The notes beneath the pieces are model-generated. The model was given only the letters and a program-made list of their open reading frames with translations. It did no database searches and was not told the DNA's origin. DNA of 64,000 nucleotides from positions 69,812,001 to 69,876,000 of the forward strand of contig OZ024745.1 in assembly GCA_964016885.1 (NCBI GenBank), given 5' to 3'. A program made the translations under genes and the position numbers. Shown here one piece after another: positions 5,630 through 54,190 of the stretch (position 1 is its first letter; every line of letters starts with the position of its first letter). The stretch comes from Eledone cirrhosa (lineage: Eukaryota).

Positions 5630-6697
5630 AGAAAGGATGAATATAAAATGAAAGTGCTTTTGTTAAAAAAGGAATTTATTAGGTATTGACATATGTTTCT
5701 GTAACAGACCGAATACCTATGTATCGCTGCTTGCGTAATCATATAATGTTAGCAAGTATTCGATAGCAAATGTATAATCAGTTGTCACTTCTTCAGAGAT
5801 TTTGGATAAACTGGATAAAATCCGAAAAATTGAAGTATTTATATTAGTAAAAGAGGAAGGAACAGAGGGGATAGAATATGACAGATGGTAAAATAATTTA
5901 CTGCTAAACAAGTATATAATGGGTTTTTAATGAGAATACCATGAGTAAATCTAAATAAGAATTTTGGGGGTGCCGATTTTAATCTCTACTTGACCAACTG
6001 GACAGTGGACAGGGCTGGTCATTTGGTGCAGTAGTATTAATCATAAAGTGTCAATTGGGGAAGGGGGAGATTTCGATTGCTACTAAATAACATCAATGCT
6101 AGTAGTCAGCTGGTATTTGCACTAGGGAATTGAATAAAAAAATCAGAAATCTCATTTTATCTATAGCAGTTTGTATTAAAAGGTAAATAATAGAAGAGTT
6201 GATAGAATTAAGACTAATAAAGAATGTTCATATCTATTTTGACAATCAAACGGGGATAGAGACAGGCGTTCAATCCTGGTAGTATTTATAATATGAAAAT
6301 GTAGATTTTAAGCGATGGTTACAGTATAACGATCGCTCTATTCTGTTATTTAATAAAATGTTTTTGGATTTCATAATACAAAATAATTCTACATTACATA
6401 ATCTACAAAATTCCTGTCCATTGGAATATGGGGGTGCAGTCGCTATTATATCCCATTTTAGGTGAAATTGTTGGTTATTTTCACGCAGCTGCCAAGCCTT
6501 GTCTGCGAGTGTTGTTACACGAGGTATGTCAATACCTAATAAATTCCTTTTTTAACAAAAGCACTTTCATTTTATATTCATCCTTTCTACATTTCTCCGG
6601 AATATAATTTATACTCGTTGAGCAAACCTGTACGTACGCTGTTCATCTCTAACGTAACGATATATTATCACTACATTATTGATAACCTGAAATTTTA
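5630..6697 (-). mobile_element. 5'-truncated Hydra-type PLE with inverted short arm
   Basis: Minus strand ~6525-6270 translates to …LKWDIIATAPPYSNGQEFCRLCNVELFCIMKSKNILLNNRIERSLYCNHRLK…, homologous to the C-terminus of ORF 47225-49375. 5630-5693 is inverted at 6526-6589, followed by a ~105-bp tail. (TA)n on both sides. Confidence 0.8.
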
Positions 6698-6719
6698 TAT
6701 ATATATATATATATATATG

Positions 6720-7396
6720 CATAGAAAGATTTGAATGGATACAGTTTAGTTGAAAGGAATTTATTGACACGTGTTTCTGTAACAGTTACATAACCTGAAA
6801 ACAGCTGCTATCTACAAAGTTTTAGTTATGCAGACATTCAATATTTCAATGTTAAAGAGAAAAATTTAAGTCTGAATGTTAATTAAGTGCAAACACAAAA
6901 CCAACCACGCATATCTTTACTATCTCTAATCCTTCTATAAATTTAGAAAAATAACCAATAATATATTCTATAAAAATGTCAAAACAACAGATGGGAATCT
7001 AATTACTCACTGCCACCAAAAATTCTCACTGCTATCAACAAACCACTCCCTCAACTATTCTTCTAACAACTTCACCCCTCCCTCCTAATATTCTCTATAA
7101 AAACCAAATAGGTCCTCAATAATATTATTCTGATGAAATGACAGTAAATAATAACATTGAAATATTGAATGTCTTCATAACTAAAACTTTGTAGATAGCA
7201 GCTGTTTTCAGGTTATGTAACTGTTATAGAAACACGTGTCAATAAATTCCTTTCAACTAAACTGTATCCATTCAAATCTTTCTATTTTTCTCCGGATTAC
7301 TTTTGGAACTACAACTGGAACCGTCGAGCAAACTCTACGTGAGCTGTCAATCTACTGTGTGTAATATTTATATTACAATACAACGGAAAATACTGT
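6720..7396 (+). mobile_element. PLE terminal fragment with inverted arms and HHR
   Basis: 6720-6855 is inverted at 7152-7285. The ~110-bp tail is related to the tail of the 5630-6697 element (TTTCTCCGG…GAGCAAAC…TACGT…GCTGT). (TA)n flanks. Confidence 0.75.
7125..7245 (+). ncRNA. Type I hammerhead ribozyme-like motif with long stem-loop II
   Basis: TTATT-CTGATGA-[A-ATGACAGT…ACTGTTAT-A]-GAAA-C-ACGT-G-TC-AATAA; palindromic loop III, GUC triplet. Confidence 0.7.
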
Positions 7397-7697
7397 ATAT
7401 ATGTATGCATATATATATATACATACATATACATACATATACATTCATATATATATATATATATACATATATGTATATGTATGTATGTGTGTGTATATAT
7501 ATATATATATAAATATATATATATATATACATGTATGTATATAAATATATATATATATATATACATGTATATATATATATATATATATATATATATATAT
7601 ATATATATATATATATATATATATACATGTATATATATATATATATATATATACACATGTATATATATATATATATATATATATATATATATATATA

Positions 7698-8565
7698 TAA
7701 TAAAGAATTTATATCTAGTAACATATATATACATACAAATGCATATCGATGCTAGCAAATATATAGGTTTTGTCTTAATAACATTGTGGTTCAATGCATG
7801 GGGTTGCAGAACAATAATATAAGAGACGTAAGATAAGAAAATTATAAAATTAACTTACTTACTACAATATCACTTCCAACTAATTAGTTTCTGGAATAAA
7901 GTAGATACATCTTCCGAAGAAGGTGTTGAGAAACATCCCGTCATCAGGAAAGTCAATTCTCATATAAGTTTCCAGGCAAAGCGAGGACACTGGAAGCTTA
8001 TTAAAAAATAAATCAGTGAATAGGAAATAGCAAAGCGTGGACTTACTTCCTAGCCATTGAGAAAATCACTGCCTCTGTGTCCGTGGAAAATTCATACTAT
8101 ATATTTGCTAGCATCGATATGCATTTGTATGTATATATATGTTACTAGATATAAATTCTTTATTATTATCTCCAACATATTTGTCGAGCAATACTGGCCA
8201 TGACTGCTACTACTGTAGTAGGCCGGCCGCTGTCTTATTAACAACCCACTTTCCACCGATTGACCTCGACGTCACGTGTTCGATTCTTTTTGAATTTGCC
8301 ACGGACACAGAGGCAGTGATTTTCTCAATGGCTAGGAAGTAAGTCCACGCTTTGCTATTTCCTATTCACTGATTTATTTTTTAATAAGCTTCCAGTGTCC
8401 TCGCTTTGCCTGGAAACATATATAAGAATTGACTTTCCTGATGACGGGATGTTTCTCAACACCTTCTTCGGAAGATGTATCTACTCCATTCCAGAAACTA
8501 ATTAGTTGGAAGTGATATTTTAGTAAGTAAGTTAATTTTATAATTTCCTTATCTTACGTCTCTTA
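7698..8565 (+). mobile_element. Non-coding HHR-bearing element (retrozyme-like), inverted arms plus tandem junction
   Basis: 7820-8094 is inverted at 8291-8565, and 7698-7767 is inverted at 8098-8166. Homologous unit at 53664-54190. No coding capacity. (TA)n flanks. Confidence 0.75.
8432..8513 (+). ncRNA. Type I hammerhead ribozyme-like motif (inverted copy at ~7872-7953)
   Basis: ACTTTC-CTGATGA-[C-GGGATG…CATTCC-A]-GAAA-C-TAATTA-G-TT-GGAAGT; palindromic loop III. Confidence 0.65.
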
Positions 8566-9391
8566 TATATATATATATATATATATATATATATATATAT
8601 ATATATATATATATATATATATATATATATATATATATATATATATATATATATATATATACATATATATATATATCGTTTCTGAATTTGTTTAGCAAGA
8701 TTCCTTATCTGAAAACATGTGTTGAACCGATACTGTGATACTTTGATAAGAAACACACGCACTAGTTGCTTTCACTTCAATTTATTATAATAAATTTATA
8801 AATTTAACAATTTATAAATTTCCGGTTCGTTGGTTGGTTCGACAACCAGATGATTGTTTATATATTGTCAAAGTTCTTTCGTCACACATTCTGTGACCTC
8901 TTCGGTGACTGGGGATTCTTTACTTTGTATTTGTGCTTCCCCATTCTTCTGTCCTACGTCATCTTGTTTTTCTGTGTGTTGTATGCTTAGTTCGCGCATG
9001 TGTTACATCCGGGTGTCTGTGTGTATTTATATTTGTTTATTTATTTGTTTATTTACATGTTACTGGTTGGTTGTTTGTTCTATGTGCGTGTGTGTTTTCA
9101 TTTTGTCCTTAATTGTAAGTTGTGATATTGCTGTTCCATTCATGTTTTCTATTTAATTTTGGTTGGAGTTCATTTATGTTTATTGCCTCTGTGATTTGTC
9201 TAAACATTGCGTCTTTTCTGTGTGTCGATTCTATTTTATTTCTATGTTCTCTAATTTACCCTTATGTTCTATGTTAGCATGTTGGTAGAGTACAGATGAT
9301 TCTTTACTATCTTGAAGGTCTGGCCAGTGTTCATTTATCCGTTCCCTATACTACGAGCTGTCTCACCTATGTACACTATATTCTTATCTCA

Positions 9392-52300: not shown

Positions 52301-52521
52301 TATCAGCGCATTAAGCTTACAGAGATATTAACCTTGAAATTTTGTGTTTGCATCCATCTTTTTAGTATGCACATACAAATTATACACACATTATTGTAAA
52401 ATATGTGTAAGGTTTTTACATGTATATACACACACCAAACTGCTTTTAACCCTTTGTGTTTTCATTGGTCAATTTTGAACTGATATTTTGAATTGTTGTT
52501 ATTATCAATAAATATACTTCA

Positions 52522-52668
52522 TTATTTCTGAAGACGGCGTATATATGAGTTAGGTATGTATATTTAATCTTGATAATTTGTATAATTTTGTATAATTTTG
52601 TACATAGATCTGTTAAATATGCATACCAATTATAACACATATATACCCTAGAAACGATCGTTAAATAG
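52522..52668 (+). ncRNA. Type I HHR-like motif with ~116-nt stem-loop II (inverted copy ~47022-47168)
   Basis: TTATTT-CTGAAGA-[C-GGCGTATATATG…CATATATACCCT-A]-GAAA-C-GATC-G-TT-AAATAG. Confidence 0.7.
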
Positions 52669-52723
52669 TGAACTTTTTTTGTTTAATATAAGGAATTGTT
52701 TGTTCATTATTTGTTTAATATTT

Positions 52724-53615
52724 TATATATATATATATATATATATATATAATATATATATATATATATATATAATATATATATATATATATATATATAT
52801 ATATATATATATATATTATATATATATATATATATTATATATATATATATATATATATTATATATATATATATATATTATATATATATATATATATATAT
52901 ATATATATATATATATATATATATATATATATAATATATATATATATATATATATAATATATATATATATATAATATATATATATATATATTATATATAT
53001 ATATATTATATATATATATATATATATATATATATATATATATATATATATATATATATATATATATTATATATATATATATATATATATATATATATAT
53101 ATATATATATATATATATATATATATATATAATATATATATATATATATAATATATATATATTATATATATATATATTATATATATATATATATATATAT
53201 ATATATATATATATATATATATATATATATATATATATATATATATATATATATATATATATACATATATATATATAATAAATTGTGTTTCGATGCATCA
53301 CTGATTCTTCGTTTTCCATATTATCATACATACTCTGCTCCGAAGGAGCATAGAGTATGTATGATCATATATTATATATATATATATATATATATATATA
53401 TATATATATATATAAATAATATATATATATATATATATAATATATATATATATATAATATATATATATATATATATATTATATATATATATATATATATA
53501 TATATATATATATATATATATATATATATATATATATATATATATATATATATGCATATATATACAAGGATTATATATATATATATATATATATATATAT
53601 ATATATATATATATA
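52724..53615. repeat. Long interrupted (TA)n tract
   Basis: Directly visible. Similar tracts at 7397-7697, 8566-8676, 11771-12046, 18000-18195, 19500-19893 and elsewhere. Confidence 0.98.
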
Positions 53616-54190
53616 AAAGCAAGCGTGGACTAAATTCAAAGACATTCAAAATATCACTGCCTATCTCCAAATTATTTTGTTGAGCAAAAATTTGCCAAAA
53701 TTACTGCTATAGTTCATAGTAACAACTTGGCTACTGTCTTTTTAACACCCTACTTCTCACTGATTAACCTCGATGTCACGTGATTGATTCTTTTGAATTT
53801 GCCACCGACCAAGTAGGCAGGGATTTTTTCAATGTCTTGGAATTTAGTCCACGCTTGCTTTTTTCCATCCACTGAATTATTTTTGTATAAGTTCCCCTGT
53901 GTCTACGCATCGCCAGGGATCTTAGCTGAGAATGACTTCCTGATTACGAAATGGCTTCTCCATGTTTTCTATTTGGAAACCATGTTTATTCCCTTTCAGA
54001 AACTAATTGGTTGGAGTGAAATTTTAGTAAGTAAGTTAATTTTTATAATTTTCTTATTTTACGTCTTTCATATAATTGTTCTGCATCCCCTTGCATTGAA
54101 CCACAAAGTTACTAAGACAAAACCTATATATTTGCTTGCATAGCTATACTTCTGTATATATATATGTTGGTAGATATACTAATTCTTTAT
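53615..54190 (+). mobile_element. Second, diverged copy of the ~525-bp retrozyme-like unit with a short inverted arm
   Basis: 53664-54190 is colinear with 8169-8565 plus the reverse complement of 7698-7820. 53615-53663 is an inversion of 53813-53862. HHR core is mutated (CTGATTA) at 53935-54017. Confidence 0.75.

Follow-up and report, generated by a model that had tools for sequence, protein, structure and literature searches.

The stretch analysed here, termed the window, comprises 64,000 nucleotides of the 3.0-Gb genome of Eledone cirrhosa (contig OZ024745.1, positions 69,812,001 to 69,876,000) and holds eleven inserts lodged in (TA)n tracts. Judged by their motifs, they are insertions of a number of Penelope-like elements (PLEs), chiefly of Hydra type, with one of Neptune type. 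Each consists of two outward-pointing inverted arms, one of which carries an extra tail; the end of the tail-less arm is called E1 and that of the tailed arm E2. Exact-match and pattern searches of the genome indicate that an insert as a rule joins one E1 to one E2 from the same source, and the structure probably reflects the priming of one RNA molecule from both DNA ends, one at E1 and one at E2.

Inverted arms in the window and the elements behind them

Self-comparison of the window found outward-pointing inverted arms, 91.8-100% identical, and flanking (TA)n in 11 of 11 inserts, with one-sided tails of about 33-162 bp plus 328 bp at 53615 (in insert order 107, 111, about 117, about 58, 83, about 33, 162, 78, 85, 134 and 328 bp). 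The original prediction had described about ten such TA-targeted inserts, with tails mostly of 35-160 bp and ~330 bp at 53615, and had placed the body bearing the open reading frame (ORF) on the tail-less arm at 5630, 12047 and 46829; places, lengths and ORF positions are all confirmed (at 5630 the frame is the end of an endonuclease), and the proposed PLE identity is supported.

The youngest family, with many identical copies, is represented by the insert at 46829. Its E2 arm (46830-47236, minus strand) comprises the 134-bp tail (46830-46963) and a hammerhead core at 47162, and is followed on the plus strand by a 5'-truncated reverse transcriptase (RT) and GIY-YIG ORF of 717 amino acids with DKT, CxCX5C, CxxC and CxH motifs (47222-49375) and by a long, microsatellite-rich 3' untranslated region (UTR; 49376-52726, plus strand) that ends at the fixed E1. 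The 273-bp arms (46964-47236 and 52454-52726) are 100% identical; a second hammerhead core lies at 52528, with the predicted cut before 52663, and the 5' wall at which short arms stop, considered below, lies near 52520. A 96%-identical inverted pair of a different small family (46718-46842 and 53232-53356) ends inward at the TA tracts holding this insert, and an extra E2-ended copy from the other subfamily of the 46829 family, with no inverted partner seen, occupies 46187-46570 (plus strand).

This family forms head-to-tail units of about 6,060 bp, the partial-tandem organisation that gives pseudo-long terminal repeats (pLTRs), in the order RT and GIY-YIG frame, 3.4-kb UTR, hammerhead, E1, 134-bp tail and E2, the frame being a single 830-aa ORF identified by its RT and YIG motifs. 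The next ATG follows 156 nt after E2 and 290 nt after E1, so that both ends lie within the tandem unit and neither is the physical end of the element, contrary to the expectation that the tailed arm reaches the true end. A hammerhead stem II of about 115 nt folds in the L031 and L104 units, which represent both subfamilies, with paired letter changes between them, and the microsatellite-rich UTR is itself a target of nested inserts (L062, L075, L114), among them one single-armed E1 copy (205 bp) from this very family.

Two further inserts carry their ORF on the tail-less arm. At 5630, the E1 arm of a Hydra-type PLE (5631-6524, minus strand) contains the C-terminal end of an endonuclease ORF and 3' UTR, while the E2 arm (6525-6696, plus strand) consists of a 65-bp shared part and the 107-bp tail and starts at most 6 nt from a hammerhead-like cut site; the inverted parts (5629-5693 and 6525-6589) are 100% identical. 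The Hydra-type insert at 12048-14880 has an E2 arm with an 83-bp tail (12048-12571, minus strand), an E1 arm (plus strand) with an endonuclease ORF at 12508-13542, arms identical at 100% (12131-12571 and 14441-14881) and hammerheads at 12231 (minus) and 14781 (plus); pattern search returned 11,754 genome matches for this family, and DNA search none.

In the older insert at 8677-11771 the tailed arm bears most of the body: the E2 arm (8677-10876, minus strand) holds RT and endonuclease fragments and the E1 arm spans 10877-11771 (plus strand). This insert looks Neptune-type, from a CX2-5CxxC linker and CCHH motif found by eye in the ORF at 10957-11421, for which the motif script gave no clean report. 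Its arms (8746-9592 and 10877-11741) are 92.1% identical with differences mostly private to each arm, as expected of age, and a two-subfamily chimera is unsupported. An older relative of the family's endonuclease region (77%), with a small inversion, lies at 26770-27297.

The remaining inserts are shorter. That at 6721-7396 has an E1 arm at 6721-6854 (minus), an E2 arm to 7396 (plus) with a 111-bp tail (7286-7396), arms 98.5% identical (6721-6854 and 7152-7285) and a hammerhead core at 7130 (plus), and that at 14984-15381 has an E1 arm at 14984-15110 (minus), an E2 arm to 15381 (plus), a tail of about 33 bp and arms 95.5% identical (14977-15110 and 15216-15348). A 475-bp palindrome (16216-16690, 93.1%) with a 162-bp tail makes up the insert at 16216-16852, a 78-bp tail (24733-24810) with a palindrome at 24811-24921 (99.1%) the short head-to-head insert at 24733-24921, and a palindrome at 26048-26149 (92.2%) with an 85-bp tail its diverged relative at 26044-26234. 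At 7698-8565, an E2 arm (7698-8094, minus) meets an E1-ended arm (8097-8565, plus) that begins with 70 bp of the tail end (8097-8166) before entering a short tandem unit; the inverted arms (7817-8094 and 8291-8568) are 97.5% identical and contain hammerheads at 7947 (minus) and 8438 (plus). Its relative at 53615-54190 pairs a 49-bp inverted arm of non-standard end with an E2 arm (53664-54190, plus); the arms (53615-53663 and 53814-53862) are 91.8% identical, and the short one stops about 210 nt before the usual tail-less site of the family, which makes the 328-bp "tail" an exception. This family, which lacks an ORF but has a hammerhead and a short tandem unit (about 520 bp), is retrozyme-like and has probably moved in trans.

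The label Hydra-type denotes a motif match. The 46829 ORF has all of the DKT, CxCX5C linker, CxxC and CxH motifs of that clade, the 12047 ORF the linker and flanking motifs, and the 5630 and 24733 families CxxC and CxH; the RWK motif of Hydra reads RWR in the 46829 family and RWK in a sister ORF at L056. A Pfam search of the PLE ORFs gave no significant family, and no ORF occurs within the window in the inserts at 6720, 7698, 53615, 14983 and 16216. A hammerhead descriptor, with 0.1 matches per shuffled set, was passed by 4 of 11 inserts (6720, 7698, 12047, 46829), those at 5630 and 8677 having core motifs only; the descriptor and core search found none at 14983, 16216, 24733, 26042 and 53615, and an Rfam scan gave no hammerhead among the matches listed, only chance microRNA-hairpin matches.

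End pairing and the source of the two arms

End pairing was followed in the first 80 E2/(TA)n ends of the youngest family on contig C1, out of 3,688 exact E2 junctions genome-wide, against 459 for E1 (the patterns required TA, and the E1 pattern fits one subfamily only); loose E2 ends in raw reads likewise abut (TA)n. Inverted-type insertions account for 64 of the 80. In 59 the inverted arm has its far end in view, 12 are single-armed, four adjoin another element, one probably has a 15-nt E1 arm, two are overlong and two are disrupted by nested inserts. The far end of the 59 lies at E1 in 58, at a TA-like site about 40 nt upstream in one and at E2 in none, and among loci picked by E1 (n = 20) there were 15 with an inverted E2 partner, five single-armed copies and no E1/E1 pair.

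TA-likeness alone does not choose E1, because the last 400 nt of the 46829 unit contain 13 alternating TA runs of at least 4 nt, and yet 58 of 59 partners end at E1, which itself gives 3 nt of homology. E1 is a fixed family start site, like E2. The tail-less arm had been described as stopping earlier, usually at an internal TA-like stretch, and this part of the claim needs revision; a local relation to TA stands, since the tail-less junctions of the window inserts share 1-7 nt with (TA)n (mean 3.5 versus 0.85 at random arm positions, p about 2e-6, all 11 values read by eye).

The same asymmetry recurs in other families. Genome-wide, the 24733 family has 6,302 short head-to-head inserts, of which 44 are doubly tailed and 87 doubly tail-less, i.e., 2% raw and about 5% after correction for exact-match loss, against 50% under free choice; 15 of 15 of its position-ordered loci are asymmetric (two read by eye as tailed). 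Raw reads placed on the 24733 palindrome gave abundant E1/(TA)n ends only, the two arms being inseparable by such reads. In samples of 30 loci per family, all pairs in view were asymmetric for the 12047 (14/14; 11 within one locus, three paired by position), 8677 (8/8) and 5630 families (9/9, counting the window's own insert and one read-through copy). Just behind the ends, the triplet CTC occurs at 3-6 nt in 10 of 14 fixed ends, against a background of 6% (the interval was set after looking), and often starts a small hairpin. The Neptune-type 8677 family (L147 and L159) lacks CTC, but a short motif of its own recurs immediately behind E1 and E2 alike.

The two arms of an insert also share their source. 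Over 46 inserts of the youngest family they disagreed at 12 of 1,200 segregating sites, compared with 43% under random pairing, with no subfamily chimeras between arms (L038, L068 and L105 were excluded as self-overlap artefacts from short E2 arms, and 10 others had less than 150 nt of overlap); the arm-arm comparison proposed originally therefore speaks against independent copies. Many arms stop at a 5' wall, which coincides with the hammerhead's 5' edge and lies 337-349 nt upstream of E2; in the 24733 family the corresponding distance is about 135 nt. Among 58 inserts (one complex insert excluded), 17 have an arm short of the wall; in the other 41 both arms reach it, and they stop there together in 16 and pass it together in 25, with no mixed case (Fisher p 1e-11). 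Arms passing the wall must start in a downstream repeat, and the stop/pass concordance therefore indicates that the two arms were copied from a single repeat copy, for which one molecule is the simplest source. Where the E1 arm stops at the wall and the E2 arm has a different limit, the E2 arm is the shorter in 8 of 8.

Of the 59 inserts, 23 have an E1 arm that extends beyond the 5' limit of the E2 arm by more than 30 nt, 15 show the reverse, and 21 have about equal limits; in seven the arms do not overlap at all, the E2 arm there being 47-138 nt long. Inner junctions show microhomology in 28 cases, are blunt in six, contain 1-40 added bases in 17 and are unresolved in eight. Short E2 arms cluster at 47-61 nt, the 3' foot of a predicted E1 hairpin (7/13, post hoc p 0.004), which is suggestive only; L044, L072, L078 and L126 had been removed as indel or mismatch artefacts, and two arms below 30 nt and one of 138 nt lay outside the tested range. 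The 5' ends of the E2 arms at L094, L105 and window positions 6525-6531 lie at or a few bases from the predicted hammerhead cut; these are too few for a case for hammerhead cleavage in vivo.

Probable priming from both DNA ends and its alternatives

Two separate primings, in some form, are very probable, and the original proposal that both ends of a break prime reverse transcription is supported as likely. In the mechanism that we favour with reasonable confidence, one at E1 and one at E2 on a single RNA, the element's enzyme would cut both strands in (TA)n, and each free DNA end, seated by 1-7 nt of AU/TA pairing, would prime reverse transcription on the same RNA at fixed E2 or fixed E1, a complex with two active sites holding both through the short signal a few bases behind each. 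The E1-primed enzyme would go ahead, while the E2-primed enzyme would either stall within the tail, giving non-overlapping arms, or displace the first cDNA and recopy the same RNA, giving overlapping ones. Both enzymes would run off the common 5' end, likely the transcription start, after which short microhomology or the addition of a few bases would link the two cDNA ends in head-to-head orientation; where only one DNA end acts as primer, a plain 5'-truncated copy would result.

A broader form of this model, put forward tentatively and with rather less than even confidence, is that programmed double priming is the usual route of PLE integration: an RT-endonuclease acting as a dimer would read two copies of a small RNA signal, one per cut end, and by displacement make two copies of one RNA segment, with the tail as the spacer between the signals and the inverted pLTR as the normal product. 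If so, neither target junction would call for a second-strand priming step of its own.

Several observations weigh against priming of one RNA from both ends. Symmetric inserts do exist (the 44 and 87 of the 24733 family), the CTC signal is missing at 4 of 14 fixed ends, and the about equal 5' limits of 21 of the 59 could also come from fold-back. Overlapping arms from one RNA would require strand displacement through an RNA:cDNA hybrid, and PLE RTs are not known to have RNase H. The wall would be the RNA 5' end, likely a transcription start, on the strength of its position and of an initiator-like look. The E2-ascertained sample needed a 35-nt exact match, by which young copies are favoured and very short E2 arms missed, and the genome-wide sampling was confined to the 46829, 24733, 12047, 8677 and 5630 families. 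Two-family joins occur without (TA)n between the parts at L084, L190, L056, L061 and L047, and in in vitro work on a Poseidon PLE the start sites did not differ between strands, which is no demonstration of obligate E1/E2 pairing (Frangieh et al., 2024; PMC11167929).

Of the alternatives, priming by both DNA ends on two RNAs that derive from one locus and may be held together by the palindromic loop III of their hammerheads is unlikely, although it would yield overlapping arms without displacement. The four descriptor-passing inserts have a palindromic stem-loop III, and PLE hammerheads are described as dimer-type (PMC4209133); among the rare cross-family joins, L084 sets an 8677-family E1 arm against a 46829-family E2 arm, and at L190:1500-1770 an inverted arm of the 24733 family continues past E1 before changing to an 8677-family E1 end. 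Such joins suggest that a second RNA can be used (template switching), or later deletions; they are no proof of two RNAs, since L061 joins E2 to E2 and a join could arise by deletion between neighbours. Each of two RNAs would, however, offer both E1 and E2, so that symmetric pairs should be common, whereas they number 0 of 59 and 2-5%; priming at 5' or 3' repeats should mix, whereas 0 of 41 are mixed; and no subfamily chimeras occur. The short 24733 and 26042 inserts have no hammerhead core, and Naiads are described as showing the layout without canonical hammerheads (Craig et al., 2021; PMC8557442). The prediction of two RNAs held together as a hammerhead ribozyme dimer is accordingly disfavoured by shared source, unmixed wall classes, rare symmetric pairs and a descriptor passed by 4 of 11 inserts only, although two identical transcripts may form a dimer that is used at matching repeats.

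Sequential events in one complex, in which a first cDNA is made from E1 or E2 and, once the enzyme has moved, the second DNA end primes at the other site, would dispense with a simultaneous hold on both sites. All counts fit equally well, and single-armed E1 and E2 copies are both known, but a separate reason is needed for the second priming to avoid the used site, and short E2 arms ending at 47-61 nt look as if the E1 hairpin were still formed or occupied, a pattern that plain stem stalling would also produce. We consider this sequence of events improbable relative to simultaneous priming at E1 and E2.

Still more doubtful is priming at E2 only, after which the cDNA would fold back or self-prime, copy itself and join (TA)n at E1, comparable to the self-priming proposed by Arkhipova et al. 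(2013; PMC3846280). Shared variants would follow directly, as would the near-equal 5' limits in 21 of the 59, four of them away from the wall (L042, L044, L067, L081). Fold-back of E2 cDNA is nevertheless excluded for 23 of 59 because the tail-less arm there contains sequence that the tailed arm lacks, and hence as a general route, while fold-back of E1 cDNA cannot supply the tail because that cDNA has none. Nor can priming at E2 only make the single-armed E1 copies (5/20), and it must halt at E1 nearly always although better TA runs lie close by. Since copies with a single arm occur for E1 as well as for E2, each site likely primes on its own. The original argument that snap-back of one cDNA is insufficient is thus upheld, by the seven non-overlapping pairs as well as by the 23 with a longer tail-less arm.

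Independent back-to-back insertions or assembly artefacts can practically be dismissed: dense nesting in (TA)n is real (L062, L075, L114) and the arms of older window inserts are only 92-93% alike, but arms share variants, no (TA)n lies at the inner junction, thousands of copies have differing junctions, the mostly private differences between the 8677 arms fit age, and raw Illumina reads show both the ends (tailed-end/(TA)n loose ends in 622 and 533 reads of two runs) and the strand switch at the 5' wall (four reads with three starts, in one run), so that the inversions are, as far as Illumina reads and junction variety can tell, not an assembly artefact.

Other features and comparison with known systems

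Outside the PLE inserts, the window contains an LTR retrotransposon at 30709-36786, which encodes RT, RNase H and integrase domains and whose direct repeats measure 423 bp (96.9%), and Helitron-like fragments on the minus strand at 57590-61772, with Pfam Helitron_like_N at 60165-61019. Direct repeats of 152 bp (15444-15595 and 16053-16204, 92%) surround a 770-bp element between two TA tracts. Smaller features are a 123-bp hairpin (40898-41020), a 260-bp inverted pair (38320-38579 and 42194-42452) and a 330-aa frame with no Pfam match (41461-42453).

The kind of element is known, the layout and the (TA)n preference are already published, and the value of the present analysis lies in the mechanism: the counts make the layout a rule, with one E1 and one E2, the same source and the same 5' limit. 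PLE RTs are the closest relatives of telomerase RT, and the joining of both target ends by such enzymes is therefore of wider interest. A literature search, with most subscription papers (older PLE reviews included) outside its scope, found neither twin priming applied to PLEs nor counts of end pairing in titles, abstract openings or passages, and the relevant passages of a recent preprint (bioRxiv 10.64898/2026.07.22.740005) do not treat inverted inserts.

Among endonuclease-bearing (EN+) PLEs, the cited passages describe copies partly repeated in tandem next to an inverted one that is 5'-truncated, a tail of 30-40 bp that is often one-sided, a pLTR whose 5' edge is initiator-like and, for Hydra and Naiad, (TA)n targets, all of which resemble the inserts described here (Craig et al., 2021; Arkhipova et al., 2013); Craig et al. 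(2021) call the origin of the tandem and inverted structure "still undefined". Tails here measure 33-162 bp, and those accounts, in the same passages, give no counts, treat the tail as optional and attribute it to endonuclease resolution or self-priming rather than to two primings. The 46829 family, and in part those of 12047, 5630 and 24733, match the Hydra clade (Craig et al., 2021, with Hydra-1_Obim in its supplement) in the C-terminal GIY-YIG domain, the DKT, CxCX5C, CxxC and CxH motifs, the hammerhead and (TA)n insertion; differences are RWR in place of RWK and a unit of 6.06 kb with a 3.4-kb UTR, against a descriptive "generally short (<3 kb)".

The closest biochemical parallel is the Anolis Poseidon protein, which is reported to nick and extend both strands of an AT-rich target in vitro from two internal start sites flanking the tail, is predicted to dimerise and does not depend on hammerhead cleavage (Frangieh et al., 2024). 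Its start sites lie within the ORF, whereas E1 and E2 lie upstream of the ATG; it shows no strand-specific choice of site, and the main text does not address inverted insertions. The pairing rule found here yields direct predictions for that system.

The joining of one E1 to one E2 may finally be set beside twin priming by L1 elements. The inverted and direct segments of L1 are not known to overlap, whereas here only 7 of 59 inserts lack arm overlap. As summarised for L1 (PMC2912911), both DNA ends prime on one RNA, as would be the case here, and the cDNAs are joined by short complementarity into a product with an inverted segment; in the PLE inserts, in contrast, each family has its own fixed second site, the overlap between the arms usually amounts to hundreds to thousands of bases, the longer arm may be of either kind, and most insertions (64/80) are inverted. 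The mechanism would thus work like twin priming, though not in its L1 form.

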